A stretch of DNA of 28,034 bases from NCBI GenBank assembly GCA_964610595.1, contig CAZSZW010000003.1:1-28034 (forward strand), in the 5' to 3' direction. The stretch comes from an uncultured Gammaproteobacteria bacterium (GTDB taxonomy: Bacteria > Pseudomonadota > Gammaproteobacteria > JADZEE01). The position numbers were made by a program, and so were the translations under genes. Below, piece after piece: positions 1,120-28,034 of this stretch (position 1 is the stretch's first letter; each line of letters starts with the position of its first letter). Below the pieces are notes generated by a model. It saw only the letters and a program-made list of their open reading frames with translations, was not told the origin of the DNA and searched no databases.

Positions 1120-1141
1120 GACCGATCCTCCCGCGCACCCC

Positions 1142-5463: not shown

Positions 5464-5499
5464 GCTCCTCTCCCCTGGCCCAACGCACCGCACGGCCAT

Positions 5500-6726: not shown

Positions 6727-6765
6727 GATCGATATCCGCGGACGAGGCTTTCGGGGCCGGCTTTT

Positions 6766-6837
6766 GGGGTCGTGCAATCCAGCATCCGATCGAGCCCATG
6801 AGCCCGGATGCCGGGGTGCACGATCTGACCCCTATTT
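6766..6837. repeat. Long imperfect palindrome (REP-like hairpin) between gpsA and the ABC-F remnant
   Basis: Minus strand AAATA GGGGTCAGA TCGTGCA CCCC GGCATCCG GGCTCATGGGCTCGAT CGGATGCT GGAT TGCACGA CCCC. Nested arms GGGG/CCCC, TCGTGCA/TGCACGA and GCATCCG/CGGATGC. Only one copy in this window. Confidence 0.55.
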
Positions 6838-6873
6838 GCGCTGCTTGATGACGGAGGTGAAGCCAAGAGCGTT

Positions 6874-7887: not shown

Positions 7888-7889
7888 TA

Positions 7890-8399: not shown

Positions 8400-8432
8400 G
8401 TGCGTCCTTCGTCCGCGCCCGGTCCGGGCCTG

Positions 8433-8867
8433 TCAGTCCTGTTCGCGCTCGAGCGGCAGGGACTGGCCCTGCCAGGCCGTGATCCCGCCGCGCAGGCGGT
8501 GCAGGCGCGTCAGGCCCGCCTTGTTCAGGATCGAGGCCGCGCGCCCGGCGCTCGCACCGGTACTGCAGCACACCAGCACCGGACGCTCGGCGTAGCGCTG
8601 CACGAGTTCGCTGGCCTTGCCCTCGAGCCCCGACAGCGGCACGTGCACCGCATCGATGATGTGCCCGCGCCGGTACTCGGCCGCCTCGCGCACGTCGATC
8701 ACCACCGCCCCGTCGTGGTTGATGAGGTGGACCGCTTCAGCGGGCGATACCTCCTTGCCCGCAGAGACGATCCCGGCCCAGATATTGGCCGCCAGAAGTG
8801 ACAGGATCACGACCAGTGCCGCGACCAGCAGCATGTGGTTGGAGGCGAACTCGACGATTTGTTCCAT
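8433..8867 (-). CDS. Membrane-anchored rhodanese-like protein (YibN type)
   Basis: MEQIVEFASNHMLL plus a TM segment, then VIDVRE...GHIIDAVHVP, an active-site loop CCSTGASA and LRGGITAW. Canonical position upstream of secB. Confidence 0.85.
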   Translation of the reverse strand: MEQIVEFASNHMLLVAALVVILSLLAANIWAGIVSAGKEVSPAEAVHLINHDGAVVIDVREAAEYRRGHIIDAVHVPLSGLEGKASELVQRYAERPVLVCCSTGASAGRAASILNKAGLTRLHRLRGGITAWQGQSLPLEREQD

Positions 8868-9094
8868 GTCGATCCCGGTTCGGGCGGGCGCGCGGCGCGT
8901 GCCGTGGTCCAGTGATTGCAGGTGTGCAGCCTGTGGCGGCCGGCGTGCATGATACACTCGTGCGCGCGAGCGGCACACCAAGCGGGCGGGACCCGGCTGC
9001 GCGCACCAGCGGTGCCGGTGACACCGGGCCCCGACCGGACAGCGGCCGCTGTACGCCGGCGCTGCGGTCAGCCCCCGACCCGACGGCGACGGCC

Positions 9095-11847: not shown

Positions 11848-11993
11848 CGTGCCGCTGGCCCGTGCCTTGCTTGTCACTCGAAGCGGGGGGCCTGTATGCT
11901 ATCCCGCGCTGCGTGCCGTGCCGACCTGCAGCCGACTGCCCGCGGTAGCGACCTCGTGAGCCCCACCCGCGCCATCCGAACGGAGCCGCGTCC

Positions 11994-13328
11994 ATGAGAC
12001 GTTCTGATCTGCTCGCACTGACCCTGCTGCCGTGGCTGATCCCCGGCCTGCCCGCGCCCGGCGCCGCCACGGACGAGACGGCCGTCGCCCAGACCCAGGC
12101 CGAGGCGCTGCCGCTGGACGACCTGCGCACCTTCACCGAGGTATTCGCCAAGATCAAGGCGGACTACGTCGAGCAGATCAGCGACCGGGAGCTGTTGGAG
12201 AACGCGATCCGCGGCATGCTCTCGGGCCTGGACCCGCACTCCTCGTACCTGGATGCCGAAGCGTTCAAGGGCCTGCAGGAAGGCACCAGCGGCGAGTTCG
12301 GCGGGCTGGGCATCGAAGTCGGCATGGAGGATGGCTTCGTCAAGGTCATCGCGCCGATCGACGATACCCCGGCGCAGCGTGCCGGCATCGAACCCGGCGA
12401 CCTCATCATCCGCCTGGACGACACACCGGTAAAAGGCATGAGCCTGGCCGACGCGGTCAAGCGCATGCGCGGCAAACCCGGCAGCGAAATCACCCTGACC
12501 GTGATCCGCGACGGCGAGCAGAAACCGCTGAAGATCACGCTCACGCGGGCGATCATCCGCGTCCAGAGCGTCAAGCAGCGGATCCTCGAGCCCGGCTTCG
12601 GTTACGTGCGCATCTCGCACTTCCAGTCGCACACCGGCGCCGATCTGCTCGCTGCGCTCGGGGCGCTCGAGCGCGACAACGGCGGTGAGCTCACCGGTCT
12701 GGTGCTGGATCTGCGCAACAACCCCGGGGGGATCCTCAGCGCCGCGGTGGACGTCGCCGACGCCTTCCTCGACGAGGGGCTGATCGTCTACACGCAGGGG
12801 CGGGTCAAGGATGCGGAGCTGTCGTTCAGCGCCAAGGCCGGCGACCGGCTCGAGGACGCACCGATCGTGGTGCTGGTCAACGGCGGCTCGGCCTCCGCTT
12901 CGGAGATCGTCGCCGGTGCGCTGCAGGATCTGAGCCGTGCGGTAATCATGGGCGAACCGACCTTCGGCAAGGGCTCGGTGCAGACCATCCTGCCGATGAA
13001 CAACGACGCGGCGCTGAAGCTGACCACCGCGCGCTACTTCACGCCGTCGGGCCGATCGATCCAGGCCGAAGGGATCCGCCCGGACATCGTCCTCGACCGG
13101 GTGCGGATCGCCGAGCTCGACAGCGACGACGACATGGTCAAGGAAGCCCACCTGCGCGGCCACCTGGAGAACGGCGACGGCGAGGAGCCCGAGGCCGGCA
13201 AGGATGACGAGGCACCGCCACCCGAGCAGCCGCCCGCGCCGGACGTTCCGCTCGCGCAGAGCGATTACCCGTTGTACGAGGCGCTCAATCTGCTCAAGGG
13301 GCTGGTGCTCCTGCAGGCGCGCCGGTAG
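11994..13328 (+). CDS. ctpA: Carboxy-terminal processing protease (S41, PDZ)
   Basis: LDPHSSYL, FGGLGIEV (PDZ), LVLDLRNNPGG, SASASEIVAGALQD and TFGKGSVQT. Confidence 0.93.
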   Translation: MRRSDLLALTLLPWLIPGLPAPGAATDETAVAQTQAEALPLDDLRTFTEVFAKIKADYVEQISDRELLENAIRGMLSGLDPHSSYLDAEAFKGLQEGTSGEFGGLGIEVGMEDGFVKVIAPIDDTPAQRAGIEPGDLIIRLDDTPVKGMSLADAVKRMRGKPGSEITLTVIRDGEQKPLKITLTRAIIRVQSVKQRILEPGFGYVRISHFQSHTGADLLAALGALERDNGGELTGLVLDLRNNPGGILSAAVDVADAFLDEGLIVYTQGRVKDAELSFSAKAGDRLEDAPIVVLVNGGSASASEIVAGALQDLSRAVIMGEPTFGKGSVQTILPMNNDAALKLTTARYFTPSGRSIQAEGIRPDIVLDRVRIAELDSDDDMVKEAHLRGHLENGDGEEPEAGKDDEAPPPEQPPAPDVPLAQSDYPLYEALNLLKGLVLLQARR

Positions 13329-13346
13329 CGTCCGGCCCCGGCCCGC

Positions 13347-14150
13347 ATGCCCGCTCCGATCGTTGCGGTGCTGGCGCTCAGCGCCCTGGTCGCGACCGCG
13401 GCCACGGCCGCCGAGGCGCAGCGGGCGCGACCGGCGCTGATCAGCGTGCTCATCGACGACATGGGTTACCGGCTCGGCGACGGACTGGCGGCGATCGCGT
13501 TGCCCGGCCCGCTCGGGTACTCCATCCTGCCCCACACCCCGCACGCCAAGCGCCTGCTCGAAGCGGCGCGGGAAGCCGGCCGGGAGGTGCTGGTACACCT
13601 GCCGATGGAAGCCGTGCAGGGCAACGGCCTGCTGGGTCCCGGCGCGCTGCGCGCGGACATGAACCACGAGATCTTCGTCGACACGGTGCACCAAGGGCTG
13701 GACTCGCTGCCCGCGGCGGTGGGCGTGAACAACCACATGGGCAGCCTGCTCACGCGCCACACGCTGCCGATGGGCTGGCTGATGCAATCGCTGAAGTCAC
13801 GCGGCCTGTTCTTCATCGACAGCCGCACCACCGCGCACAGCGTGGCCGCGCGCGTCGCCCGCGAACACGCCGTTCCGGTCCTGAGCCGCGACGTGTTCCT
13901 GGACAACGAGCGCGAAGCGGACCACGTGCGCGCCCAGTTCCATGCATTGGTCGCCATCGCCCGGCGCCGCGGCCATGCGCTGGGGATCGGCCACCCGCAC
14001 CCGGTCACCGTCGCGGTGCTGGCCAGCGAGCTCGCCGCCCTCGATCCGCTTGAGGTACGGCTGGTCAGCCCGGGCGAGCTGCTGCGTATGCGCGCCGTGC
14101 CGCCCGCACGCACCCTGCCCGCACCGCCGGCGATCCCGCTGCGTCATTGA
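13347..14150 (+). CDS. Divergent polysaccharide deacetylase (YibQ family)
   Basis: LIDDMG, VHLPME, GVNNHMGS, FFIDSRT, RDVFLDN and IGHPHPVT. Follows ctpA as usual. Confidence 0.9.
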   Translation: MPAPIVAVLALSALVATAATAAEAQRARPALISVLIDDMGYRLGDGLAAIALPGPLGYSILPHTPHAKRLLEAAREAGREVLVHLPMEAVQGNGLLGPGALRADMNHEIFVDTVHQGLDSLPAAVGVNNHMGSLLTRHTLPMGWLMQSLKSRGLFFIDSRTTAHSVAARVAREHAVPVLSRDVFLDNEREADHVRAQFHALVAIARRRGHALGIGHPHPVTVAVLASELAALDPLEVRLVSPGELLRMRAVPPARTLPAPPAIPLRH

Positions 14151-14410
14151 GCGGGCGGGCCGCAACGGTGACCGGGGCGGATTGGTTCGAGCTGGCGCGC
14201 CACCCGAGCGTGGTGCGGCGCGCCCTGAAGGTCGCGGTGCTGGTCGGCACCCTTCTCGTCGCCATCAATCACGGTGCCGCTCTGCTGGCCGGCGAGCTGG
14301 ATACGACGCGTGCGATCCAGGTGCTGCTCACCTACCTGGTGCCGTACTGCGTCTCCACCTATGCCGCGGTCGGGGCCTTGCGCGAGCAACCGGCGCAAGA
14401 CGATGTCTGA
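14147..14410 (+). CDS. Small two-TM protein resembling the nitrate/nitrite transporter NrtS family
   Basis: RRALKVAVLVGTLLVAINHG...LLTYLVPYCVSTY matches the NrtS pattern as I recall it. Overlaps both neighbours. Confidence 0.7.
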   Translation: MSGRAATVTGADWFELARHPSVVRRALKVAVLVGTLLVAINHGAALLAGELDTTRAIQVLLTYLVPYCVSTYAAVGALREQPAQDDV

Positions 14411-15473
14411 ACGTCGCCGCGCGGCCGCCGCGGCGCTGGCGCTGGCGCTGGCGGGCATCGGCCCGGCGGCGGCGCTCGATCGCGACGCGGCGCTGGCCGC
14501 CTACGCACGCGGCGACTACCGCAGCGCCGGGGTCGCCTTCGCCAGGCTCGCACGCCGCGGTGACGCCGTGGCGATGAACAATCTCGGGGTGCTGCACCTG
14601 CGCGGCCTGGGCGTGCCGCAGGACGATGCCAAGGCGCTGGCGCTTTTCCGCGCCGCCGATCGCAACGGGCTGACCGGCGCCAAGCACAACATCGGCATGA
14701 TGTACCTGCGTGGCCACGGGGTCGAGGCCGATCCGGCCGCGGCGGCGCACTGGTTCGCCGCCGGCGCCGAACGCGGCGACCGCGAGGCGCAATTCCAGCT
14801 CGCCCTGCTGCTGCACGCCGGCCGCGGGCTGGCGCGCGACCCCGAAGCTGCGCTGCGGCACTTCGAACAGGCCGCCGAGGCAGGGCTGCCCGCCGCGCAG
14901 TACAACCTCGGCGTGCTGTACCTGAACGGCGACGGGGCACCACCCGACGCCGAGCGCGCCGCGTTCTGGCTGCGACGCGCCGCCGAGGCCGGGCACGCCG
15001 AGGCGCAGCTGCAGCTCGGTTACCTGCTGTTCAAGGGCGGTGACGGCATCGAGCCCGACTACGTCGAAGCCGAGCGCTGGCTCGGCGCCAGCGCCGCCAA
15101 GGGCGATGCCGAAGCGCAGCTGAACCTGGGCATGATCGCGCTGCGCGGGCTGGCCGGCCCGCCCAATGCCGAGGCCGCCTTCCACTGGTTTCGCCGGGCC
15201 GCCGAGCAGGGCCACGTCGGGGCCCAGCACAACCTGGGGATCCTGTACTTCCAGGGGGTGGGTGCGCCGCTCGATCCGGTGCGAGCCTACGCGTGGTTCG
15301 ACGTCAGCGCCATGGGCGGCCACGAACAGGCTCGGCGCAACCTCGAGCTGCTCGATGCGCAGCTCACGGCCCAGGCCATCGCCGAGGCGCGCGCGCTGTC
15401 GGCGGAGTTCATCCGCGAGTTCGGCACTTACGGCAGCGCCGAGCGCGCGCCGGATCCGACCCCGGATCACTGA
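14403..15473 (+). CDS. Secreted Sel1-repeat protein
   Basis: Signal peptide MSERRRAAAAALALALAGIGPAAA, then seven Sel1 repeats (AMNNLG, AKHNIG, AQFQLA, AQYNLG, AQLQLG, AQLNLG, AQHNLG) and the typical AYAWFxxxA...A..ARA cap. Confidence 0.88.
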   Translation: MSERRRAAAAALALALAGIGPAAALDRDAALAAYARGDYRSAGVAFARLARRGDAVAMNNLGVLHLRGLGVPQDDAKALALFRAADRNGLTGAKHNIGMMYLRGHGVEADPAAAAHWFAAGAERGDREAQFQLALLLHAGRGLARDPEAALRHFEQAAEAGLPAAQYNLGVLYLNGDGAPPDAERAAFWLRRAAEAGHAEAQLQLGYLLFKGGDGIEPDYVEAERWLGASAAKGDAEAQLNLGMIALRGLAGPPNAEAAFHWFRRAAEQGHVGAQHNLGILYFQGVGAPLDPVRAYAWFDVSAMGGHEQARRNLELLDAQLTAQAIAEARALSAEFIREFGTYGSAERAPDPTPDH

Positions 15474-15601: not shown

Positions 15602-16360
15602 CTACTTCAGCATGACGCCCCCGTCGACGACGATGCTGGTGCCGACCACGTAGTCGCTCGCCGCCGAGGCCAGGAACACCGCTGCACCGGCGACGTCTTC
15701 GCAACGGCCGATGCGTCCGGCCGGGACCTTGCTCGCCGCCGCCGCGGTCACGCGCTCGATGGTCCGCGGATTCAATCCCGTGTCGATGTAACCGGGGCAC
15801 AGGGCATTGACCTGGATGTTGTGACGCACCAGCTCCAGCGCCATCGCCCGCGTGAGCATCATCACCCCGCCCTTGCTGGCGCTGTAGTCGGCGCTGCACG
15901 GCAGCGGCAGGAACGATCCCACCGAAGCGATGTTGATGATCTTGCCGTTGCCCTGACTCACCATGCGCCGGCCCGCCGCCTGTGCGCACAGGAACATGCC
16001 GGTCAGATTGATCGCGATCGTCTCCTGCCACTGAGCGGGCTCGATGTCCAGGAACAAGCGCGCGGCGCCGCCAGTGCCGGCATTGTTGACCAGGACGTCG
16101 ACGCGGCCGAAGCGCGCGACGACGGCATCGACCATCGTCTCGACCTCGGCGCGCTGCGTGACGTCGCAACGGTAAGCCGCGGCCTCGCTGCCCGCTGCAC
16201 GGATCGCCTCGCACGCCGCCTCGCACACCGCCAGGCGCCGCCCGCACAGGGCGACACGGGCGCCGGCCCCCGCCAGCGCCCGCGCGATGCCCAGGCCGAT
16301 CCCGCTGCCGCCGCCGGTGACGATCGCCACCCGGCCGGTCAGATCGAAAGTCACACTCAC
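15602..16360 (-). CDS. Short-chain dehydrogenase/reductase (SDR)
   Basis: TGGGSGIG, LVNNAG, IINIASV, catalytic YSASK and VNALCPGYIDT. Confidence 0.9.
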   Translation of the reverse strand: MSVTFDLTGRVAIVTGGGSGIGLGIARALAGAGARVALCGRRLAVCEAACEAIRAAGSEAAAYRCDVTQRAEVETMVDAVVARFGRVDVLVNNAGTGGAARLFLDIEPAQWQETIAINLTGMFLCAQAAGRRMVSQGNGKIINIASVGSFLPLPCSADYSASKGGVMMLTRAMALELVRHNIQVNALCPGYIDTGLNPRTIERVTAAAASKVPAGRIGRCEDVAGAAVFLASAASDYVVGTSIVVDGGVMLK

Positions 16361-17526
16361 GATGCGCCGACCGCGTCGCGCGCGGGCGGTGCGGCGCGGA
16401 CCTCGCCATCGAGCAGCTGCGCAGCCAGCGCCTCGAGGTGATCGTCAGCGTCGCCGAAGGCGCTCTCGGCCATGCGCGCGTGACGGAAGTAAAGCGGCAT
16501 CTCATGTTCCTCGCAGTAACCGATGCCGCCCATGACCTGGTGTCCGCGGCGCACGATGCGCCGGTAGGCCTGGCTGCAGCAGACCTTGGCCTTGGCGGCC
16601 AGCACCGGCTCCGGTGCTGCGCGGTCGATTGCCGCGGCCGCCTTGTACGTCAGCCAGCGCGCGCACTCCAGGTCCATGAGCATGTCCACGCAATGGTGCT
16701 GGATGGCCTGGAAGCTGCCGATCGGACGGCCGAACTGCTCGCGCTCGCGGGCGTAGGCGACGGCGGTATCCAGCACGCGCTGCGCGCCCCCGACCATCTC
16801 CGCGCACTTGCCCACCGTGGCTTCGAGCAACGCCCGGCGCAGCCCCTGCGCGGCCTGTTCGGGCTCGCCGAGCATGTCCGCGTCACTCACCTCTACGCCG
16901 GCGAAGTCCACCTGGTCGTACTGCGCGCCGCCGATGCACGGCATCGGCGTGCGCCGCACGCCGGGTGCATCCGCGGCGACGCGATACAGCGCCAGCGCCT
17001 CGTCCGCGCCGCTGCGTGCCGGGCACAGCAGCAGGTGCGCGGTCGCAGCGTCGGCGACGAACGGCACCGTACCCCGCAGCCTCACACCCGCGCGGACGGA
17101 CTCGGCGTGCACGGACACGGCGGACGCCTCGAGCGCCGCGCGCTGCGTGTCCAGCGCGAGCGCGAGGCGCAGTTCACCCCGGGCGAGGGGCGGCAACAGC
17201 GCCTGGCGCTGCGGCTCGGCGCCCGCGCGCAGCACACACAAGGCGCCGAGCACGGCGCTGGAGAACAGCGGCCCCGGCACACAGGCGTAACCAATCTCCT
17301 CGAGCAGGACGACCAGATCCACGAAACCGGCGCCGCTGCCGCCGTAGCGCTCGGGCACGAGCAGTCCCATCCAGCCGAGCTCGGCCATCTGCCGCCACAG
17401 CGCATCGTCGCAGCCGTGCGGCTGCAGGCGTGCGGCGCGCACCCGCGCCGGCGTGCAGGCCTCGGCCAGGAATTCCCGCGCGCTGTGCCGGATCAGCATC
17501 TGCTGTTCGTCGAGCTCCAGGTGCAT
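16357..17526 (-). CDS. Acyl-CoA dehydrogenase family protein, probable non-catalytic subunit of an alpha2beta2 pair
   Basis: MHLELDEQQMLIRHSAREFL, REQFGRPIGSFQAIQH and HQVMGGIGY. The SEPxAGSD FAD motif is degenerate and neither canonical catalytic Glu site is recognisable. Confidence 0.88.
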   Translation of the reverse strand: MHLELDEQQMLIRHSAREFLAEACTPARVRAARLQPHGCDDALWRQMAELGWMGLLVPERYGGSGAGFVDLVVLLEEIGYACVPGPLFSSAVLGALCVLRAGAEPQRQALLPPLARGELRLALALDTQRAALEASAVSVHAESVRAGVRLRGTVPFVADAATAHLLLCPARSGADEALALYRVAADAPGVRRTPMPCIGGAQYDQVDFAGVEVSDADMLGEPEQAAQGLRRALLEATVGKCAEMVGGAQRVLDTAVAYAREREQFGRPIGSFQAIQHHCVDMLMDLECARWLTYKAAAAIDRAAPEPVLAAKAKVCCSQAYRRIVRRGHQVMGGIGYCEEHEMPLYFRHARMAESAFGDADDHLEALAAQLLDGEVRAAPPARDAVGAS

Positions 17527-17551
17527 GCAATCGGTTCTCCGTAACGGACGC

Positions 17552-18763
17552 TCAAAGCCCGCGCGGCAGGCGCAATCCGCGCAGCGCCACGACGTTGCGC
17601 AGCACTTCGCTGGTACCACCGCCAATCGTGTCGATGACCGTTGCCCGGATCATGTGCGCGACCTCGCCGGCCAACGGCGCGCACGGTGAGCCCTGCTCGA
17701 GCCGGCCCCACGGCCCGAGGATATCCAGCGCCGCGTAGGCGATTCGCTGGCGCAGCTCACTGCCGACCAGCTTGACCAGCGTGCCCTCGGATTCGATGGG
17801 CTTGCCCGCACGCAACAGAAACAGCGCGCGCGCTTCGAAACACAGCGCGGCCTCCAGCTCGACCTCCATCTGCGCCAGTCGCCGGCGCACCCGGGGCTGT
17901 TCGGCGAGCCGGCGACCGTCGCGCACGGTCGTGCGCACGCAGGCGATCAGGCGATCGAGGAATGCCCGCAGCCGGATGTTCTGTGACAGCATCAAGCGCT
18001 CGTGCTCGATGGCCTCGATCATGTAATAGAAACCCCGGTTCGGCTCCCCGACCAAGCGAGTCTCGTGGACGCGCACCTCGTCGTAGAACACGGCGTTGGT
18101 GCGTTCGCCTCCCAGGGTCTGGATCGGGTCGATGGTGATCCCCGGGGCACGCTGATCGACCACGAACAGGCTGATGCCGCGGTGGCGCGGGGCCTGCGTG
18201 TCGGTGCGTACGGCCACCCAGTGGTAATCCGCGTAGTGGCTCTGGGTGTTGTACAACTTCTGTCCCGAAATGACGTAATACTCGCCGTCGCGCACGGCGC
18301 GCATCTGCATGGCGGCCAGGTCCGAGCCAGCCGGCGGCTCGGTGTAGCCGAGCCCGAACTCGATCTCGCCGGCGGCGATGCGCGGCAGGAACTCGCGCTT
18401 CATCCGCTCGCTGCCGTGGCGCAGGATCACCGGACCCGCCATCAGGCGCGCCACGCTGTTGGGCAGATACGCCTCCCGGCGCGCGAATTCCTGCGACAGG
18501 ATGATCTCCTGCGCCACGGTGCCGCCGCTGCCGCCGTATTGCGCCGGCCAGCCCGCGCCGAGAAATCCCGCCGCACCGAGGCGGCGCATGAACTCCCTGC
18601 CTTCGGGCCCCAGACCCTGGTCCAGCGGATGCTGGCGGCGCACCTGCTCGGTGAGCTCGCGATCCAGGAACTCGACCAGGCGGCGCTGGAAGTCGCGATC
18701 CTCGGCCGTGGAGTCCAGTTCGAAATCCAGGGACCGGCGCTGCGAGGACACGCTCGCGCTCAC
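17552..18763 (-). CDS. Acyl-CoA dehydrogenase, probable catalytic subunit of an alpha2beta2 pair
   Basis: C-terminal part of the 17552..19690 ORF; GTG overlaps the ligase stop. LGYTEPPAGSDLA, ISGQKLYNTQS, IEHER and TIGGGTSEVLRN. Confidence 0.88.
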   Translation of the reverse strand: MSASVSSQRRSLDFELDSTAEDRDFQRRLVEFLDRELTEQVRRQHPLDQGLGPEGREFMRRLGAAGFLGAGWPAQYGGSGGTVAQEIILSQEFARREAYLPNSVARLMAGPVILRHGSERMKREFLPRIAAGEIEFGLGYTEPPAGSDLAAMQMRAVRDGEYYVISGQKLYNTQSHYADYHWVAVRTDTQAPRHRGISLFVVDQRAPGITIDPIQTLGGERTNAVFYDEVRVHETRLVGEPNRGFYYMIEAIEHERLMLSQNIRLRAFLDRLIACVRTTVRDGRRLAEQPRVRRRLAQMEVELEAALCFEARALFLLRAGKPIESEGTLVKLVGSELRQRIAYAALDILGPWGRLEQGSPCAPLAGEVAHMIRATVIDTIGGGTSEVLRNVVALRGLRLPRGL

Positions 18764-20301
18764 TTGCGCACCAGCGCGCCGGCGCCGAGCCGCTCGCGCA
18801 GCTCGCCCTTGACCACCTTGTTCAGCGCATTGCGCGGCAGGCAATCGAGGAACACGACGTGGCGCGGGATCTTGTAGCGCGCCAGACGCCCGTCGCAGTG
18901 GCTCAGCACCTGTTCTGCACTGAGCTCGCAGCCCTCGCGCACGACCACGGCGGCGCACCCCACCTCGCCCCAGCGCTCGTCGGCCACACCGATGACGGCG
19001 GCCTCGGCGATGGCCGGCAGCTCGTACAACGCGTTCTCGACCTCGGCCGGGTACACGTTTTCGCCCCCGGAGATGTACATGTCCTTCCAGCGGTCGACGA
19101 TGTAGTAGTAGCCGTCGGCGTCGCGTCGTGCCGCATCGCCGGTGCGGAACCAGCCGTCGCAAAAGGCCTGCGCGGTGGCCTGCGCGTCGTTCCAGTAGCC
19201 GGGGGTCACCGACGGACCGCGGATCCAGATCTCGCCGACCTCGTCGACGCCCGCATCGCGCCCGTCCTGCGTGACCAGACGGATCTCGCCGTGCACCACC
19301 GGCATGCCGCAGGAGCCGACTTTCTCGAGCGGTTGGTCCAGCGCGCTGATGAGCACGCTCGGGCCGCCCTCGGTCATGCCGTAGCCTTCCTGGAAGGACA
19401 CGCCGCGTGCGCGCCAGCGCCGGTGCAGGCTCAGGGGCACGGGCGCTCCCCCCACCGCGGCAGCGACGATGCGCGACAGATCGACGCCATCGAACCGCGG
19501 GTGATCGCTCAACATCTGGTAGCTGGCCGGCACGCCCATCAGGTGAGTGATGCCGAGCGCCGTGTCGGCGACCAGATCGAGGATCCAGTCCGGATCGGAC
19601 TGGCGGCTGACGACCACGGTTGCGCCCGCGTGCAGGGCCGGATTGGAACCGTTGCTCAGACCGCCGACGTGGAACAGCGGCAGCGAGCACAGCTGCACCG
19701 AGGACTGCCCCACGCGCACGAGCATGCCGTAGTTCACGGCGTTGAACAGCGCCATCGCGTGGGTGATGACGACGCCCTTGGGCCGGCCGGTGGCGCCGGA
19801 GGTGTACAGGATGGTACAGGGCTCGTCGAGACGGGCCTCGAGCGGGGCGAAATCCGTGCGCGCGGCGCCGATCGCCCGTGCATACTCACCGCCGGTGCCG
19901 TCCTGCCCCCAGCCGAGCAGGCGCGTCCCGCTGCCCGCCGTGGCCGCTTTCGCGTTCCCGGCGTGGGTCTCGTCATGGAACAACACGCCGGGGACGGCGT
20001 TGGCGAGCTGCTGGCGCAGCTCCGTGGCGGTCAAGCGCCAGTTGAGCGGCACGTTGATCGCGCCGGCCTTGTGGCAGGCGTTCTGCACCACCAGGTGCTC
20101 GGGCGAGTTCTGCGCCAGTACCGCCACGCGCTCGCCGCGCGTGATGCCGAATTCATCGACCAGCAGCGCCGCCAGTGCACGGGCGCGGGCATCGAGCGCC
20201 GCGTAACCGAGCGTGCGCCGGCTATGGGCGTCGATCAGGGCGGGTTTGTCGGGCTGGCGCGCCGCGTGGCGCGCGATCCAGTCGTAGGCCTTCAGGTGCA
20301 C
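18760..20301 (-). CDS. Acyl-CoA synthetase / AMP-forming CoA ligase
   Basis: C-terminal part of the 18760..21333 ORF, starting VHLKAYDWIARHA. YTSGATGRPKG, EGYGMTE, FRTGD, ISGGENVYPAEVE and PRNALNKVVK. Confidence 0.92.
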   Translation of the reverse strand: MHLKAYDWIARHAARQPDKPALIDAHSRRTLGYAALDARARALAALLVDEFGITRGERVAVLAQNSPEHLVVQNACHKAGAINVPLNWRLTATELRQQLANAVPGVLFHDETHAGNAKAATAGSGTRLLGWGQDGTGGEYARAIGAARTDFAPLEARLDEPCTILYTSGATGRPKGVVITHAMALFNAVNYGMLVRVGQSSVQLCSLPLFHVGGLSNGSNPALHAGATVVVSRQSDPDWILDLVADTALGITHLMGVPASYQMLSDHPRFDGVDLSRIVAAAVGGAPVPLSLHRRWRARGVSFQEGYGMTEGGPSVLISALDQPLEKVGSCGMPVVHGEIRLVTQDGRDAGVDEVGEIWIRGPSVTPGYWNDAQATAQAFCDGWFRTGDAARRDADGYYYIVDRWKDMYISGGENVYPAEVENALYELPAIAEAAVIGVADERWGEVGCAAVVVREGCELSAEQVLSHCDGRLARYKIPRHVVFLDCLPRNALNKVVKGELRERLGAGALVRK

Positions 20302-21302
20302 GCGCCCGCGTCCTCGCCACCGACCGCCAGCACCACCTTGCCCATGACCTGACGGCTCTCCAGCAACCGGTGCGCCTCGGCGGCCTGCGCCAGCGGCAGC
20401 ACGGCGTGCACGTGCGGCGCGATGCGCCCGTTGCCGGCCAGGTCCACCAGCTCCTGCAGCGCCCGGCCCATGGCCGGCGCGTCGCTGGCCGCGACCGACT
20501 CCAGGCTCATCAAGCGCAGCGCCGGGCTGGCCCCGAAGGCGCCGAGCATGGCCGGCAGGAACTCGGGCGCCGGCGGCCCCTCGGCCATGCCGTAGAGCAC
20601 GATCTGGCCGAAGGGCGCGAGCATCGTCAGATCGTCGATCAAGGTGGCGCCCCCAACCGAGTTGAACACCACCTGCACGCCCAGGTCGCCGGCCTGCGCC
20701 CGCACCTGCGCGGCCAGCGCACCGGTGCCCGATTGCAGCACCGCGTCGGCGCCCAGGTCGCGCACGAAGCGGCACTTCGCCTCGGATCCCGCCAGCCCGA
20801 TCACGCGCACCCCCTGCAGGCGCGCGAGCTGCACCAGCGCCGAGCCCACGCCTCCGGCCGCCGCGTACACGACGATGGTGTCGCCGGCGCGTACCGGCGC
20901 CGTGCGCCGCAGCAGGAACCAGGCGGTGAGATAGTTCACCCCGATCGCCGCGCCGGCCGCGAAGGAAACCGCCTCGGGCAGGCGCGCGGCGAAAATCGCC
21001 GGGCAGGCCACGTACTGCGCCGCACAGCCGCCGGGCGTGACCACCGCGACCCGCGCGCCCATCCAATCGGGCGCCACCCCCTCGCCCGTCTCGACCACCA
21101 CCCCGGCCGCCTCGTAACCGGTCACGAAGGGCAGCGGCGGCATGTGCGGATACAGGCCGCGGCGCAGCTGCACGTCGCCGAAGCTGACGCCGACCGCGGC
21201 CACTTCGACCAGGAGCTGGCCGGGGCCGGCGCGGGGCCGCTCGACGCTTGCATGGTCCAGTACCTCGGCCGGACCCGTGTGCCGCAGCACGATCGCCTCC
21301 AT
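20292..21302 (-). CDS. Zn-independent MDR (quinone oxidoreductase / enone reductase type)
   Basis: GVSFGD and GYEAAG stand where Zn-ADH has GxCHxD and GHE. There is no four-Cys structural Zn lobe. Nucleotide motif AAAGGVG, and AHRLLESRQVMGKVVL. Confidence 0.88.
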   Translation of the reverse strand: MEAIVLRHTGPAEVLDHASVERPRAGPGQLLVEVAAVGVSFGDVQLRRGLYPHMPPLPFVTGYEAAGVVVETGEGVAPDWMGARVAVVTPGGCAAQYVACPAIFAARLPEAVSFAAGAAIGVNYLTAWFLLRRTAPVRAGDTIVVYAAAGGVGSALVQLARLQGVRVIGLAGSEAKCRFVRDLGADAVLQSGTGALAAQVRAQAGDLGVQVVFNSVGGATLIDDLTMLAPFGQIVLYGMAEGPPAPEFLPAMLGAFGASPALRLMSLESVAASDAPAMGRALQELVDLAGNGRIAPHVHAVLPLAQAAEAHRLLESRQVMGKVVLAVGGEDAGACT

Positions 21303-21342
21303 CACCGTCCTCCCTTCCATCTGCGCTTCGCATTCATTCTAA

Positions 21343-21371
21343 ATAGTAGGAAATTATTCTTTTGGGTACAA
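21343..21371 (-). promoter_or_regulatory. Putative sigma70 promoter for the MDR-ligase-ACAD-ACAD-SDR operon
   Basis: Minus strand TTGTAC-17 bp-TACTAT, about 40 bp upstream of the MDR start, in an AT-rich island. Confidence 0.55.
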
Positions 21372-21389
21372 GCGCGCAATGTGGTCCGT

Positions 21390-22175
<786 letters not shown>

Positions 22176-22316
22176 GGCGCACCGGTGCTCATCGATATGC
22201 TCCCATAGGCCTGTGGGTCACGGCGGCTATTGCACATCCGCACACACGGCATTATTCTTATCGGTATTGTATTATTCTTTTTAGTATAAATACCAGCCTC
22301 GAGCGAGGAAAATCGC
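22176..22316. promoter_or_regulatory. Divergent promoter region between the enoyl-CoA hydratase and serine hydrolase genes
   Basis: 141-bp intergenic region with an AT-rich core, ATTATTCT twice at 20-bp spacing (22251, 22271), a near-perfect palindrome at 22202-22217 and an RBS GAGGA before 22317. Confidence 0.7.
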
Positions 22317-23477
22317 ATGCAACTCACGGATCCGCACAGCGTCGGTATCGACGCGCAACGCCTGCTGCGGCTGCCGCAGGCCATCGCCCGGGACGTCGAG
22401 ACCGGCCTGTACGACGGTGCCGTCATCGCCGTCGGCCGCCACGGTAATCTCGTGCTGCACGAGGCGATCGGCTACGCGGATCGGGCCGCGGGCCGTGCAG
22501 CCCGACTCGACGACGTGTTCGCGGTACTGTCACTGTCCAAGACGCTCACCAACGTGCTGGTACTGAACCGCTGCGAGCAGGGGGCACTGCGCCTGACCAT
22601 GCCGGTCGCGGAGCTGATCCCCGAGTTCGCGGTACTGGGCAAGCAGCACATCACCGTACAGCATCTGCTAACGCACACCGGCGGCCTGGGCGGTATGCCG
22701 CCTTTCCCGCTCGACCACATGCCCCTCGACCAGGCCATTGCGGCCATCTGCACCTTGCCGCCGCTGTCACCGCCCGGGCGCGCGGTCAGCTACAGCGGAC
22801 TGGCGGCACACGCCGTGCTCGCCGAGCTGGTACGCCGTGCCGACGGCGGCGCCCGCCCGTACCGCCAGATCCTGGACCAGGATCTGCTGCAGCCACTCGG
22901 CATGCACGACACTGCGCTCGGGCTGCGCGCGGACCTCGCGCCTCGCCGCGTGCCCATCGTCGTGCGCGACCAGAGCCCGGGTCTGCTGCCGCCACCCATG
23001 CTCGAGGGGCTGAACCAGGTCCTGGGCGAACAATCAGAGGTTCCCGCGATTGGCGCCTTCTCGACCGCAGCCGATTTCTACCGCTTCAGCGAGATGCTGC
23101 GCCGCGGCGGCGAGCTCGACGGCACGCGCCTGCTTTCGCCGCGCATGGTGGCGCTGGCGAACAGCAACTGGACCGGCGCGATGGTCAACGAGCTGTGGGC
23201 CTACGCCCGCGAAAGCCGCGGCTGGGCCGATCACCCGGCCTGGATCGGGCTGGGCTTCGCGCTGCGCGGGGAAGGCATCTTCCCGCACTACTACGGAACC
23301 CTGGCCTCGGCGCGCACCTTCGGCCATCAGGGCGCCGGCTCGACCCTGTTCTGGGTGGATCCGGCGCAGGACATGTGCTTCGTCGCGCTGACCGCCGGCC
23401 TGCTCGAGGAGTCGGCCAGCGTCGAGCGCTTCCAGCGCCTGTCCGATCTGGCCCTGGCCGCGATCGTGGCTCCGTGA
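22317..23477 (+). CDS. Serine hydrolase, beta-lactamase/EstB-like family
   Basis: SxxK motif (LSLSK), LLTHTGG, PGRAVSYS (catalytic Tyr) and FGHQGAG. No obvious signal peptide. Confidence 0.88.
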   Translation: MQLTDPHSVGIDAQRLLRLPQAIARDVETGLYDGAVIAVGRHGNLVLHEAIGYADRAAGRAARLDDVFAVLSLSKTLTNVLVLNRCEQGALRLTMPVAELIPEFAVLGKQHITVQHLLTHTGGLGGMPPFPLDHMPLDQAIAAICTLPPLSPPGRAVSYSGLAAHAVLAELVRRADGGARPYRQILDQDLLQPLGMHDTALGLRADLAPRRVPIVVRDQSPGLLPPPMLEGLNQVLGEQSEVPAIGAFSTAADFYRFSEMLRRGGELDGTRLLSPRMVALANSNWTGAMVNELWAYARESRGWADHPAWIGLGFALRGEGIFPHYYGTLASARTFGHQGAGSTLFWVDPAQDMCFVALTAGLLEESASVERFQRLSDLALAAIVAP

Positions 23478-23582
23478 AGATGACGGGTCGCGCCACGCCG
23501 CGCCCGCTTGCGCCACGTCAACAGCCGCGCGCTCGCGCCGGTCATAGTGAGCGCGGCCGGCGGACTGACACGAGGACAAGTC

Positions 23583-26525
23583 ATGGCTAGCAACGAGCCC
23601 GGGATCCTGCCCGGCAACGGCGGCACGGCCGGCGGCACAACCCGCCGCGGCTTTCTCGCCTTCGGCGTCAGGTCCACGCTGGCGCTGGCGCTGTGCGAGC
23701 TCGCCCCCGCCCTCGACCGGGGCTTCATCGGCGAGGTACTGGCCGGCACCCGCAGCATCGCTTACGCCGGCTGGGAAGATCTGTATCGCAGACAGTGGCA
23801 CTGGGACCGGATCACCTGGGGCTCGCACACCAACGCCTGCTCGCCCGGCACCTGCCTGTTCCACGTCTACACCCGCAACGGCCTGGTATGGCGCGAGGAA
23901 CAGGCGGCGCGCACGCGCGCCAGCAATGCCGCGTACACCGATTACAACCCGCTCGGCTGCCAGAAGGGCTGCGCCTTCCACACCAGCCTCTACAGCGGCG
24001 AACGGGTCAAGTATCCACTCAAGCGCGCCGGTGAACGAGGCGAGGGCAAGTGGCAGCGGGTCAGCTGGGACGAGGCGCTGACCGCGATCGCCGACGCCAT
24101 CATCGACGGCCACCAGCGCGGCGGCACTTCGAGCTTCGTGCTCGACGGCCCGCACGTGCACGCCGGCAGCGTCGCCTCCGCGGCGGCATTCCGTTTCACC
24201 GATCTCCTCAATGGCATCCTGACCGACCACAACGTGCAGATCGGCGATACCTTCGTCGGCTGTCTCATCACCCTCGGCAAGATGCAGGTCGGCTACACGC
24301 CGGACAACTTTTTCGACGCACGCCTTGTGATCCTGACCCATTCGAACTGGTCCTATACCGCGCCGGCGCTGTACCACTTCATTACCGAAGCCCGCTACAA
24401 CGGCACCGAGATCGTGATGCTCGCACCGGACGCCAACCCGACCACGCATGCGGTGGACGTGCACGTACCGGTGCGGATCGGCACCGACGCCGCCTTCTGG
24501 CTGGCCGCCTGCCAGGTGATGATCGAGGACGGCATCTACGATGCCGGCTTCGTGCGCGAGCAGACCGATCTGCCGCTGCTGGTGCGCACCGACACGCGCC
24601 GCTATCTGCGCGCCGCCGAGGTCGACGGCGGCCGCGAGGACCAGCTGTATTTCTTCGACACAGCCGCCGGCCACATCGCGCCGGCGCCGCGCGCGACGCT
24701 GCGCCACGAATTCAACCCCGCTCTCGAGGGCGAGTTCCCGGTGATGCTGGCCGACGGTACGCGGGTAACGGTCACGCCCGTATTCGCGCTGCTGCGCAGC
24801 CAGCTCGACGCGCGCTACCGGCCGGAGCAGGCGCAGGCGCTGTGCGGCGTACATGCCTCGGTGATCCGGGACCTTGCCACCAGGATCGCGACCCGGCGCA
24901 CCTGCTGCTACACCGGCTTCAACAACGGCAAGCACTACCACGGTGACCTGATGGAGCGCAGCCTGCTGCTGGCGCTCGCGCTGTCCGGCAACGTCGGCAA
25001 GCCGGGCACCGGCATCACCATCTGGTCGTTTCCGGCGGACGGCATTTCGCTGCTCGCGGGGATGGAAAAGCCGGTCGCGCAGGGTGGCATGGCCATCGGC
25101 ATGGAGTTCGCCCAGGCGCTGGCGCGCGAGATGACGGCGCGCGATCCGGAGATCACCGAGGAGCTCGTCAACATCGAGATGATGAAACAGATGACGCGCC
25201 GGCTCGGCCAGTCGCCGTCGTCCTTCTGGCTCTACCATCACGTCGGCTACGACAAGCTGTGGAACCGGCGCGAGTGGCAGGATCCGGCCATGCCGCGCTC
25301 GTTCGGGGAGTACATGGAAGCCGCGGTGGCGAAAGGGTGGTGGGACGGACTGGTGCTGCCCGAACCCGGCAAGCCGCCCGAGGTCGTGATGTACATCGGC
25401 AACAATCCGCTGCGGCGCGTGCGCAGCGGCAACGTCCAGTACCCGAAGGAGCTGTTTCCGAAGGTCAAGACCATTTTCGCGGTCGAGACCCGGATGTCGT
25501 CGTCGGCGATGTACTGCGACTACGTGCTCCCGGCCGCGTGGTATTACGAAAAGGAGGACATGACGCTGTCGATGACCGCCAGCCCCTACATCTCGCTGAT
25601 CGAGAAGGCCGTGGAGCCGGTCGGGGAGGCGAAGGAGGAATGGCAGATCTTCGGTCTGCTGCTGCGCAAGATCGCCGAGCGCGCGGCGGCGCGCGGCATC
25701 GACGGGGTCACCGACCGCTTCGGCCAGCGGCGCGACTACGCCGGCCTCTACGAGCGCTACACGCTCGGCGGCGCCGTCAAGGACCACAACGCGGCGGTAC
25801 GCGAGATGGTCGCGGTCAAGGTCGCGACCGGCATCTTCCCGCGCGACTACAGCTACGAGCGCCTGCGCGAGGACGGCACCGTGCCCTTGCACGGCATGGG
25901 CGTGACCTTCCAGCGCCACGCGGTCGCGAACGAATACGATCCGGACAAGCCCTTCTACAGCCTGCGCTGGCACACCGAGGAGAAGCTCCCGTACCCGACC
26001 TATGCGCGACGCATGCAGTTCTACATCGACCACGAGTGGTTCCTCGAGGTCGGCGAGGAGCTGCCGGTGCACAAGGACATACCGCCGATCGGCGGCAACT
26101 ACCCGTTCCAGATCACCAGCGGCCACCCGCGGGTCAGCATCAACTCGGTGCATCTGGCCAACGAGCAGTTGAGCCGCCTGCACCGCGGCCAGCCGGTGAT
26201 CTTCATGAACGACGGCGACGCCGCTGCGCTCGGCATCGCCGACAGCGAGATGGTGCGCGTGTACAACGACGTCGCCGGGTTCGAGATCATGGCCAGCCTG
26301 CAGGCGTGCGTCGCACCGGGACAACTGATCGTCTACTACTGGGAACCGTACCAGTTCCGCGACTGGAACAACTTCGACGGCGTACTGGTCGGTCTGCCGA
26401 AGGCGCTGCACTTCGCAGGCGGCTACGAGCAGCTGCGTTACTTCTACATGCACGGCAGCCCCTACGCCTCGGTGGACCGCGGCGTGCGCGTGGGCGTGGA
26501 GAAACTGAACCGAGGAGTCGTGTGA
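23583..26525 (+). CDS. ebdA: Ethylbenzene-dehydrogenase-like molybdoenzyme, alpha subunit (type II DMSO reductase family)
   Basis: RBS GAGGA. Tat signal TTRRGFL. FS0 motif GSHTNACSPGTC...NPLGCQKG, GPHVHAG, IGDT (Asp Mo ligand), YHGDLMERS, ETRMSSSAMY, HPRVSINSVHL and YEQLRYFYMHGSP. Long stretches match Aromatoleum EbdA as I recall it. Confidence 0.88.
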   Translation: MASNEPGILPGNGGTAGGTTRRGFLAFGVRSTLALALCELAPALDRGFIGEVLAGTRSIAYAGWEDLYRRQWHWDRITWGSHTNACSPGTCLFHVYTRNGLVWREEQAARTRASNAAYTDYNPLGCQKGCAFHTSLYSGERVKYPLKRAGERGEGKWQRVSWDEALTAIADAIIDGHQRGGTSSFVLDGPHVHAGSVASAAAFRFTDLLNGILTDHNVQIGDTFVGCLITLGKMQVGYTPDNFFDARLVILTHSNWSYTAPALYHFITEARYNGTEIVMLAPDANPTTHAVDVHVPVRIGTDAAFWLAACQVMIEDGIYDAGFVREQTDLPLLVRTDTRRYLRAAEVDGGREDQLYFFDTAAGHIAPAPRATLRHEFNPALEGEFPVMLADGTRVTVTPVFALLRSQLDARYRPEQAQALCGVHASVIRDLATRIATRRTCCYTGFNNGKHYHGDLMERSLLLALALSGNVGKPGTGITIWSFPADGISLLAGMEKPVAQGGMAIGMEFAQALAREMTARDPEITEELVNIEMMKQMTRRLGQSPSSFWLYHHVGYDKLWNRREWQDPAMPRSFGEYMEAAVAKGWWDGLVLPEPGKPPEVVMYIGNNPLRRVRSGNVQYPKELFPKVKTIFAVETRMSSSAMYCDYVLPAAWYYEKEDMTLSMTASPYISLIEKAVEPVGEAKEEWQIFGLLLRKIAERAAARGIDGVTDRFGQRRDYAGLYERYTLGGAVKDHNAAVREMVAVKVATGIFPRDYSYERLREDGTVPLHGMGVTFQRHAVANEYDPDKPFYSLRWHTEEKLPYPTYARRMQFYIDHEWFLEVGEELPVHKDIPPIGGNYPFQITSGHPRVSINSVHLANEQLSRLHRGQPVIFMNDGDAAALGIADSEMVRVYNDVAGFEIMASLQACVAPGQLIVYYWEPYQFRDWNNFDGVLVGLPKALHFAGGYEQLRYFYMHGSPYASVDRGVRVGVEKLNRGVV

Positions 26526-27604
26526 TGGCATACGCACCCGAGGGCAGCAAGCAGGACCTCATCGCCGCGCAGCGCCAGCTCGCCACGGTCATCGACCTGA
26601 ACAAGTGCATGGGCTGCCAGACCTGCGTGGTTGCCTGCAAGAACCTGTGGACGCTGCGCGAGGGCACCGAGCACATGCGCTGGATGAACGTGACGACCTA
26701 TCCGGGTCGCGGTTATCCGCGCGACTACGAGCAAAAGGGCGGTGGCTTCCGCGACGGCGAGCCACAGCCGGGGACACTGACGACACTCGCCGAGTGCGGC
26801 GATCACTTCCAGTTCAACCACGACGAGGTGCTGAACCAGGGGCGGGGCCAGCAGGCGCGGTTCGAGCCGCGGACCGCCGCCGGCGAGCGCCCCGACTGGG
26901 GGTACAACTGGGACGAGGATCGCGGCGGCGGGCGGTGGCCGAACGGCTACCGCTTCTACCTGCCGCGCATGTGTTACCACTGCAGCAATCCGCCGTGCGT
27001 GCAGGCCTGCCCGAACAACGCGATCTACAAGCGCGAGGCCGACGGCATCGTGCTCATCGATCAGGATCGCTGCCGCGGGCACCGGCACTGCGTCGAGGCC
27101 TGTCCGTACAAGGCGATCTATTTCAACCCGGCAAGCACCACCAGCGAGAAGTGCATCCTGTGCTTCCCGCGCGTGGAGAAGAACGTCGCACCGGCGTGCA
27201 ATCGCCAGTGTCCGGGGCGCACGCGCGCCTTCGGTTACCTCGATGACGCCGACTCCCAGGTGCACAAGCTGGTGCGGAAATGGCGTGTCGCGCTGGCGCT
27301 GCACCCGGAGTACGGCACCGAGCCCAACGTCTACTACATCCCGCCCTGGTCGCCGTTCGCCTACGACGACCAGGGCCGGCTGACCGGGGAGATGCGCATC
27401 CCGGTCGAGTTGCTCGAGCAGCTCTTCGGCCCGGCCGTACACGGGGCGCTCGCGCTGCTCGCCAGCGAGCGCGCGAAGAAGATGAACGGCGAACCCTCGG
27501 TACTGATGGACATCCTCAACAGCCGGGTCTGGGAAGAGCGCTTTGCCGGCTTTACCGCCGCGCCGCTCGAAGCGCACGGCGCCGGCGGGGAGAGCGCCCC
27601 GTGA
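26525..27604 (+). CDS. ebdB: Ethylbenzene-dehydrogenase-like beta (Fe-S) subunit
   Basis: Start overlaps the alpha stop. Cys groups CMGCQTCVVAC, CYHCSNPPCVQAC, CRGHRHCVEAC (3Fe-4S type) and CILC...ACNRQC. GTEHMRW.NVTTYPG.GYPRDYE and WGYNWDED match EbdB as recalled. Confidence 0.9.
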   Translation: MAYAPEGSKQDLIAAQRQLATVIDLNKCMGCQTCVVACKNLWTLREGTEHMRWMNVTTYPGRGYPRDYEQKGGGFRDGEPQPGTLTTLAECGDHFQFNHDEVLNQGRGQQARFEPRTAAGERPDWGYNWDEDRGGGRWPNGYRFYLPRMCYHCSNPPCVQACPNNAIYKREADGIVLIDQDRCRGHRHCVEACPYKAIYFNPASTTSEKCILCFPRVEKNVAPACNRQCPGRTRAFGYLDDADSQVHKLVRKWRVALALHPEYGTEPNVYYIPPWSPFAYDDQGRLTGEMRIPVELLEQLFGPAVHGALALLASERAKKMNGEPSVLMDILNSRVWEERFAGFTAAPLEAHGAGGESAP

Positions 27605-28034
27605 AGGCGGCGAGGGTGGCAATCGCAACCGCGTCGCTCGCGGATCCCGCGGCACGCCCCTGGGCACGGGCCGCGCGCGAGACGCTGCAGATGGTGCCCA
27701 CGCCGCTCGCGCTGGTGCACGAGGTGTCGCCGTTCCTCGCGCGCAGCACCGATCACGGCCGCGTGACCGAGCTGTCGGTCGCGCTGCTGCACAACGGTGA
27801 GGTGCTGGCGCTGCGCCTGTCCTGGGACGCCCCGCGGCCGGTCGACGCGCTCGCCGATCTGGATCGCTTCGTCGACGGCGCCGCTGCGATCTTCCCGCTG
27901 GCCGAGGGTGCGAGCGCGGTGACCATGGGCTCGCCGGGCCGGCCGACCAATGCCTGGTACTGGAAGGCCGGCGCGAAGACGGCCTGGGATGTGATTGCCG
28001 AGGGATTCGGCAGCAGCCGGCGCAGCGCCGGCGC
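27601..28034 (+). CDS. ebdC: Ethylbenzene-dehydrogenase-like gamma (heme b) subunit, truncated by the window end
   Basis: Not in the ORF track. GTG overlaps the beta stop. It reads VKAARVAIAT...MVPTPLALVHEVSPFLARSTDHG...LHNGEVLALRLSW...FVDGAAAIFPLAEGASAVTMGSPGRPTNAWYWKA...IAEGFG, with the heme-ligand Met in AVTMG. Confidence 0.88.
   Translation, partial: MKAARVAIATASLADPAARPWARAARETLQMVPTPLALVHEVSPFLARSTDHGRVTELSVALLHNGEVLALRLSWDAPRPVDALADLDRFVDGAAAIFPLAEGASAVTMGSPGRPTNAWYWKAGAKTAWDVIAEGFGSSRRSAG

Follow-up and report, generated by a model that had tools for sequence, protein, structure and literature searches.

Few enzymes of the ethylbenzene dehydrogenase (EBDH) type have known substrates, namely ethylbenzene, p-cymene, the C25/C26 positions of sterols and possibly alkanes, and their homologs number more than 2,000. 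A 2023 survey of the superfamily names only EbdA, CmdA and S25dA as hydroxylating members. His192 of EbdA, the catalytic subunit of the enzyme from Aromatoleum aromaticum EbN1 (Protein Data Bank (PDB) entry 2IVF), has been proposed to shuttle a proton in C-H activation and OH rebound (PMC6308299), and Lys450 hydrogen-bonds the aspartate that ligates the molybdenum (PMC7803848, PMC6153880). Histidine as a ligand of the iron-sulfur cluster FS0 has also been described (PMC8840923). His192 is missing from the hydroxylases that act on steroids (S25dA), on p-cymene (CmdA) and putatively on alkanes (AhyA) (PMC7803848, PMC6153880), and the products of S26DH and Cmd enter coenzyme A (CoA) ligation and beta-oxidation (PMC11061730). 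Here we analyze a related gene set on contig CAZSZW010000003.1 (assembly GCA_964610595.1) of an uncultured gammaproteobacterium; "the window" is the whole stretch of 28,034 nucleotides, with a G+C content of ~70%.

The window appears to encode an EBDH-type periplasmic molybdenum hydroxylase that is not an ortholog of EbdA, that has a clade and a gene cluster of its own, and that would carry out the same chemistry on a substrate other than ethylbenzene. We give this reading a probability of roughly 0.7. Judged from its genes, the enzyme is predicted to be complete and intact, with alpha, beta and gamma subunits and a delta chaperone encoded just past the window end. The clade is a new, uncharacterised branch of the EBDH-type hydroxylases, among which many such uncharacterised clades exist, and no description of it was found in the literature searched. 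Several studies of sludge and bioreactors yielded metagenomes that contain the exact window sequence.

The alpha subunit and its catalytic core

The likely start codon of the alpha gene is an ATG at 23583, preceded at 6 nt by the ribosome-binding site GAGGA. Chain A of 2IVF (EbdA) is the top PDB sequence match to the alpha protein (1209 bits, E = 0, residues 20-975). An AlphaFold2 model built with 55 homologs (mean pLDDT 86) superimposes on that chain with a template-modelling (TM) score of 0.97 and a root-mean-square deviation of 1.9 Å, at 53% sequence identity. PcrA, the alpha subunit of perchlorate reductase, is the second-best structural match, at 29% identity and a TM score of about 0.81-0.89. 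The Pfam domains PF00384 and PF01568 were found on P0001, a protein cluster near-identical to the alpha protein. Counting positions along the alignment to 2IVF chain A leads to the numbering used in the literature (H82, C86, W87, C92, H192, D223, K450, W481, Y483, D485), and positions below follow EbdA unless they are given for the window.

A preliminary description of the window, made from its letters alone, had picked out five motifs in this gene (Table 1) and set them beside the EbdA strings given for the same sites. Each motif is present once in the plus-strand open reading frame (ORF), at the position assigned to it, and these EbdA strings (GSHLNICWPQGSC, APHVHAG, IGDT, GFSSAKSYHG and AWAYSDDN) are all found in 2IVF chain A, column for column with the motifs of the window. 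The match is not due to chance, because homology to EbdA extends over the full length of the protein. The segment that carries the motifs corresponds to that half of the alpha subunit which holds the active site.

The catalytic core had been thought to be conserved, and the family comparison agrees. The catalytic His, the Mo-binding Asp and the partner Lys (His192, Asp223 and Lys450 in EbdA; H191, D222 and K450 in the window) are invariant in an alignment of 119 homologs, to which the motif-column counts below also refer. The FS0 ligands (window H82, C86, C91 and C126) are invariant both in this alignment and in one of 55 sequences. The residue after the catalytic His is Val, as in EbdA (Val193), and the combination of Val193 with Thr224 is confined to two groups, the EbdA group with 11 sequences and the window clade with 8. 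Since both residues are kept, the inner shell around the molybdenum appears EbdA-like, which is firmer support for a kept core than the three catalytic residues alone. Among 78 metagenomic loci His192 is kept in only 13, and all metagenomic homologs whose identity is 46% or lower have Tyr at position 87 and one of Pro, Ser, Glu and Gly at position 192. The presence of His192, which these distant homologs lack, therefore places the window enzyme in the EbdA-type half of the family, where this histidine is retained.

A separate clade and its putative channel residues

A search of 5.8 billion proteins yielded 2,027 homologs at an E value of 1e-50 or better. Only eight clusters (P0001-P0008) and one fragment are at least 68% identical to the window protein; all other homologs are 50-59% identical, including EbdA itself (P0055, 99.8% identical to 2IVF). 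A neighbour-joining tree of 121 sequences places the window clade on a separate deep branch, outside the EbdA group.

The alpha and beta proteins were also scored against family models. The EbdA equivalog model NF042978 is the best NCBIfam match of the alpha protein, but the score of 1290.9 bits falls well short of the cut-off of 2000, and the beta protein reaches 572.8 bits with the EbdB equivalog model NF042979 (cut-off 740). TIGR03479 gives 980.7 bits on alpha, slightly below its cut-off of 984.75, and TIGR03478 gives 502.9 bits on beta, above its cut-off of 480.7. The signature CWPxGSC and the AWAYSDDN-type loop of the EbdA group are absent, the window having CSPGTC and IWSFPADG in their places. 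Equivalog scores, tree and motifs together indicate that the protein is no ethylbenzene dehydrogenase ortholog, though it is predicted to work like an EbdA. A substrate other than ethylbenzene, as the preliminary description had proposed, is likely because of the separate branch, the sub-cut-off EbdA and EbdB scores, and a gene cluster distinct from the ebdABCD-ped neighbourhood.

The same description had read the differences from EbdA as signs of a remodelled substrate pocket, roomier than that of EbdA or different from it. The differences themselves hold in the alignment to 2IVF chain A: W87S, Cx4C against Cx5C in the FS0 loop, A190G, S447N/S448N/A449G/S451H and A482S/Y483F/S484P/D485A. The short FS0 loop, however, is not a remodelling of the window protein. 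Cx4C is the majority form of the Cys86-Cys92 loop, found in 97 of the 119 homologs (Cx5C in 22), and the insertion is EbdA's. At position 484 the Pro of the window is shared by 105 homologs and the Ser of EbdA is the outlier (5/119); His451 (46/119) and Phe483 (30/119) are likewise the commonest states of their columns. Gly449 (27/119), Ala485 (26/119) and Gly190 (21/119) are common to other clades, and position 485 is either Ala or Ser within the window clade. Among these substitutions only Ser87 is clade-specific, all eight of its occurrences falling within the clade. On this alignment EbdA is itself a derived or atypical sequence at several active-site-proximal positions, and the states of the window appear to be often ancestral or in the majority. 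Because EbdA is atypical at the Cx5C loop and at Ser484, comparisons centred on it overstate "remodelling" in its relatives.

The residues that set the clade apart lie mostly elsewhere. We screened for residues that never vary within the clade and that at most 3% of the other homologs carry, and obtained 16 clade-private sites: W87S, S91T, N135T, N136S, I217H, P290H, L506G, A618N, M631T, I648Y, Q767T, A908Q, I934G, N958H, P963A and T965V. Ser87 is the sole one that the preliminary description had listed; the other 15 were absent from it. When 954 columns were ranked by mutual information with clade membership (six clades, 115 sequences), position 220 was second, 193 fourth, 87 fifth and 224 sixth, and three of these positions (193, 220 and 224) are neighbours of the catalytic His and Asp. 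Ranks between 30th and 45th went to positions 217, 451, 481 and 483, and position 485 was 92nd; the ranks of positions 190 and 447-449 (183rd to 380th) are unremarkable.

Two positions that differ from EbdA align with residues of PcrA whose role at a gate is named in PDB titles ("Phe164 gate switch", 5ch7; "W461E"). Phe164 aligns with EbdA Ile217, which is His216 in the window, and Trp461 aligns in a family profile alignment with EbdA Asp485, which is Ala485 in the window. At position 485 this lends indirect support to part of the pocket reading; position 217 was not among the sites that the preliminary description had flagged. The clade appears to have a distinct channel signature, consisting of Ser87, His216 and Ala/Ser485 together with Thr134, Ser135, His289, Gly506, Tyr647 and others (window numbering). 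No published list of EbdA substrate-pocket residues was found; the literature searched names only His192, Asp223 and Lys450.

It might be argued that Ser87, Thr90 and Cx4C, the FS0-loop changes, affect not substrate binding but the environment of the Fe-S cluster or pterin (redox potential, electron transfer), that the substrate range broadly overlaps that of EbdA (alkylaromatics), and that the gene neighbourhood reflects no more than another downstream route. Residue 87 is part of the ligand loop and is bonded to Cys86, an FS0 ligand, the length of this loop varies across the family with the ligands never lost, and the literature searched does not put residue 87 in the pocket. We nonetheless consider this explanation unlikely: as one of the most clade-discriminating columns, position 87 stands beside 193 and 224, next to the catalytic His and Asp, in a pattern typical of specificity sites, and other private residues coincide with gate positions of PcrA that are not near FS0.

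The gene cluster and its candidate substrate

The features of the window are collected in Table 1. The gamma gene is partial and runs past the window end, but the motif with the heme Met ligand, AVTMG, is present. At orthologous loci a full gamma gene is followed by the gene for an EbdD/NarJ-type chaperone (delta). The traits of type II dimethyl sulfoxide (DMSO) reductases are found in the alpha protein (Tat signal, His/Cys3 FS0, Mo-ligating Asp) and in its partners (four-cluster beta, heme-b gamma, chaperone), full gamma and delta being known from the orthologous loci alone.

Table 1. Coordinates of genes, motifs and exact transcriptome contigs in the window. FS0 and FS0 to FS4, iron-sulfur clusters; Mo-bisMGD, molybdenum bis(molybdopterin guanine dinucleotide); aa, amino acids.
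Feature	Position	Strand	Remarks
AAA_22 ATPase	184-1248	-	
Secretin with Secretin_N_2/STN domains	1142-2884	-	
ORF without family match	2881-3921	-	
PilN-like gene	3893-4561	-	
Weak PilM-like gene	4510-5517	-	
Short-chain dehydrogenase/reductase (SDR)	15602..16360	-	Left edge of conserved cluster
Acyl-CoA dehydrogenase, PimD-like small subunit	16357..17625	-	Maximal ORF; ortholog match 16411-17526
Acyl-CoA dehydrogenase, PimC-like large subunit	17552..18760	-	
Acyl-CoA ligase (AMP-binding)	18760..20304	-	
MDR-family gene (quinone oxidoreductase/enoyl reductase-like)	20292..21320	-	
Enoyl-CoA hydratase (EchA19-like)	21390..22175	-	First gene of divergent operon
Family VIII carboxylesterase-like gene (beta-lactamase fold)	22317..23477	+	First operon gene, 105 nt 5' of alpha; in all clade loci
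Alpha (catalytic Mo-bisMGD/FS0) subunit gene, EBDH-like hydroxylase, 980 aa	23583..26525	+	ORF, 2IVF_A match, AlphaFold2 model
Tat (twin-arginine) export signal core TRRGFLAFG, aa 20-28	23640..23666	+	Aligns with EbdA HRRDFLKRSG
FS0 motif GSHTNACSPGTC, aa 80-91 (H82, C86, S87, C91; Cx4C loop)	23820..23855	+	2IVF_A alignment
Fourth FS0 ligand Cys126	23958-23960	+	2IVF_A alignment
GPHVHAG, aa 189-195	24147..24167	+	His191 = EbdA His192; Gly in place of EbdA Ala190
His216 (EbdA Ile217)	24228..24230	+	Clade-invariant, clade-private; aligns with PcrA gate Phe164
IGDT, aa 220-223	24240..24251	+	Mo-ligating Asp222 = EbdA Asp223, then EbdA-type Thr224
GFNNGKHYHG, aa 445-454	24915..24944	+	Lys450; Gly449 for EbdA Ala, His451 for EbdA Ser
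IWSFPADG, aa 480-487	25020..25043	+	Trp481 kept; Phe483/Pro484/Ala485 for EbdA Tyr/Ser/Asp
Beta (four Fe-S cluster) subunit gene	26525..27604	+	ATG overlaps alpha stop (TGATG); 83% identical to L001 beta
Gamma (heme b) subunit gene	27601..28034	+	GTG start overlapping beta stop; 2IVF_C, E 6e-42
Exact contigs of metatranscriptome run X22	21707-21857, 24865-25016, 26808-26993, 27666-27834		

The hydroxylase genes lie within a conserved cluster of about 20 genes that is found only with the window clade. The clade loci compared are the window (15602-28034), L001, L003 and L004 (82-83% identity), L002 (87%, from a Gammaproteobacteria metagenome-assembled genome), L009 (77%) and L011 (73%); a metagenome scan with family-wide patterns added just one more clade locus, which is identical to L011. 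The gene order common to the loci begins on the minus strand with the SDR, the PimD-like and PimC-like acyl-CoA dehydrogenases, the acyl-CoA ligase, the MDR reductase and the EchA19-like hydratase, and continues divergently on the plus strand with the family VIII esterase, alpha, beta, gamma and delta. Convergent to these, on the minus strand, are genes for a DUF35 protein, an SCPx-type thiolase, a SnoaL-like protein, a VAO/PCMH-type flavoprotein and a Zn alcohol dehydrogenase (Zn-ADH), and the order ends on the plus strand with a second SDR and a TetR regulator. The stretch of L011 that was read is without the first SDR, the DUF35, the thiolase and the VAO-type genes, and a TonB-dependent receptor gene is inserted between its hydratase and esterase genes (region 6331-9816). 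The esterase of L011 appears as two ORFs (183 and 191 aa) and the Zn-ADH also as two, which suggests frameshifts or assembly errors.

The database matches of several cluster proteins say little about the compound that is degraded. NCBIfam and PDB matches of the esterase, the VAO-type flavoprotein, the acyl-CoA dehydrogenases, the ligase and the thiolase are generic, and no signal peptide was found in the esterase or the VAO-type flavoprotein. A role of the VAO-type protein as a sterol delta-24 desaturase was considered and rejected, the latter enzyme being CtmAB-like.

To the left of the cluster, a housekeeping block (7890-15473) marks its edge, with genes for SecB, a rhodanese-domain protein, a cofactor-independent phosphoglycerate mutase, an S41 C-terminal processing protease, a divergent polysaccharide deacetylase and a Sel1-repeat protein. 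Further left on the minus strand, the gene at 5657-6505 encodes a protein of 282 aa whose one Ion_trans domain (E 8e-39) and size match those of bacterial voltage-gated cation channels like NaChBac, and a set of pilus or secretion genes (184-5517) is similar to MSHA-type loci for type IV pilus biogenesis.

The neighbours of the clade cluster are absent from the non-clade homolog loci L005-L008 and from the true ebdA locus (L012), where ebdABCD is followed directly by a ped-like SDR gene. At L005 (27-8328), the locus of a distant homolog, the genes are arranged alpha-beta-gamma-delta-alpha, and both alpha subunits show an identity of about 54% to the clade protein. The orthologous clade loci do not share the ebdABCD-ped operon context: no ped-type SDR gene follows delta, and no acetophenone carboxylase or benzoylacetate-CoA ligase gene was found in about 20 kb of six of these loci, though carboxylase genes may lie elsewhere in the genome.

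This context bears on whether the enzyme is simply a functional ethylbenzene/propylbenzene dehydrogenase whose sequence differences represent neutral drift in a distant lineage. EbdA is its best solved match and the EbdA equivalog its best NCBIfam match, and His192, Val193, Asp223, Thr224, Lys450 and Trp481 are identical to those of EbdA. Such an explanation must also account for an identity of 53%, a separate deep branch, scores far below the equivalog cut-offs, and clade loci from which, over about 20 kb at six of them, the ped-type SDR and the genes for further metabolism of acetophenone are missing. Moreover, the 16 clade-invariant residues are nearly absent elsewhere and therefore point to selection rather than drift. 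We regard this explanation as improbable.

The gene set suggests a CoA-dependent, beta-oxidation-like route, with the cluster under the control of the TetR regulator. By analogy with EbdA, the enzyme would hydroxylate an activated C-H bond of the benzylic or allylic type with oxygen derived from water, independently of O2, and the electrons would exit through FS0-FS4 and heme b. The hydroxylated product would enter the cytoplasm and be oxidised by the alcohol dehydrogenase and SDR enzymes, after which the CoA ligase may activate the oxidised product. The activated acyl group could then be shortened by a beta-oxidation-like set suited to bulky or branched chains, comprising the paired PimCD-like acyl-CoA dehydrogenases, the EchA19-like hydratase, an SDR, and the SCPx-type thiolase with the DUF35 protein. 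In place of ethylbenzene, the substrate is probably a hydrophobic compound of larger size or greater polarity that has an alkyl side chain.

Several observations weigh against our preferred reading, that of an EBDH-type hydroxylase with the same chemistry and another substrate. The cluster has neither a carboxylase nor an aldehyde dehydrogenase, and no path by which a secondary alcohol or a ketone would become a carboxylate can be recognised in it, which leaves a gap between the hydroxylated product and an acid that the ligase could activate. EbdA is reportedly promiscuous toward many alkylaromatics, so that turnover of ethylbenzene by the window enzyme is possible. The equivalence of PcrA and EbdA at position 485 has an alignment posterior of only about 0.7. 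Finally, transcript evidence is present only in traces. In metatranscriptomes from one of the studies whose metagenomes contain the sequence, only four short contigs of run X22 (bioreactor RNA) match exactly, on the hydratase, alpha, beta and gamma genes, and most of the matching pieces stem from foreign contigs and measure 20-45 nt. The X22 contigs suggest low-level transcription, or they could be due to DNA carry-over.

One possibility is that a substrate already carrying a carboxyl group would account for the absent carboxylase and aldehyde dehydrogenase. We tentatively suggest, with the odds still clearly against it, that the clade substrate may be bulky and already polar or carboxyl-bearing, not a plain hydrocarbon. 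Candidates include alkyl-aromatic and alicyclic acids, acids of the resin-acid-like or terpenoid kind, and wastewater xenobiotics derived from esters. The small or polar private residues Ser87, Thr134, Ser135, His216 and His289 fit such a substrate, as do a CoA ligase without an aldehyde dehydrogenase or carboxylase and the TonB-dependent receptor in one locus (L011). If this were true, the cluster would encode a route of oxygen-independent catabolism in denitrifying bacteria of bioreactors that has not been described before.

Whatever the substrate, an EbdA-like catalytic shell combined with a distinct channel signature and a delimited, TetR-controlled cluster makes this system a tractable target in the search for a new substrate of anaerobic C-H hydroxylation. 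The clade enzyme may also be a stereoselective biocatalyst with a different substrate range.

Comparison with known systems

The window enzyme is like PcrAB (PDB 4YDD, 5CH7, 5E7O) in its fold, its FS0 cluster and its Asp ligand, but PcrAB is an oxyanion reductase, and the gate positions are His216/Ala485 in the window and Ile217/Asp485 in EbdA. That the window enzyme is an oxyanion or dimethyl sulfide (DMS)-type enzyme (a selenate, chlorate or perchlorate reductase, or a DMS dehydrogenase) and not a C-H hydroxylase is very improbable, since the shared type II DMSO-reductase architecture and the second-best structural match to PcrA are set against an identity of 29% to PcrA versus 53% to EbdA, the replacement of the aromatic gate residues of PcrA, the presence of the EbdA His192, and a location within an organic-acid/CoA catabolic cluster that has a TetR gene and no respiratory accessory genes.

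CmdABC, S25DH/S26DH and the putative alkane hydroxylase AhyABC belong to the same subfamily as the window enzyme and share its overall chemistry, the water-dependent hydroxylation of C-H bonds. The downstream route of S26DH and Cmd resembles the one that the window cluster suggests. Unlike CmdA, S25dA/S26dA and AhyA, the window protein retains His192 and is nearer to EbdA.

The closest likeness is to EbdABC(D) of A. aromaticum EbN1. The two systems share the three-subunit periplasmic architecture, the Tat signal, the His/Cys3 FS0, an Asp-ligated molybdenum with its Lys partner, the pairs His192-Val193 and Asp223-Thr224, Trp481, a four-cluster beta subunit, a heme-b gamma subunit with a Met ligand, and a nearly superposable fold. 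They differ in that the window clade forms a separate branch and has Ser87, Cx4C, His216 and about 10 further private residues. The operons differ as well: that of the window opens with an esterase gene, and it is flanked by CoA-ligase and beta-oxidation genes and not by ped.

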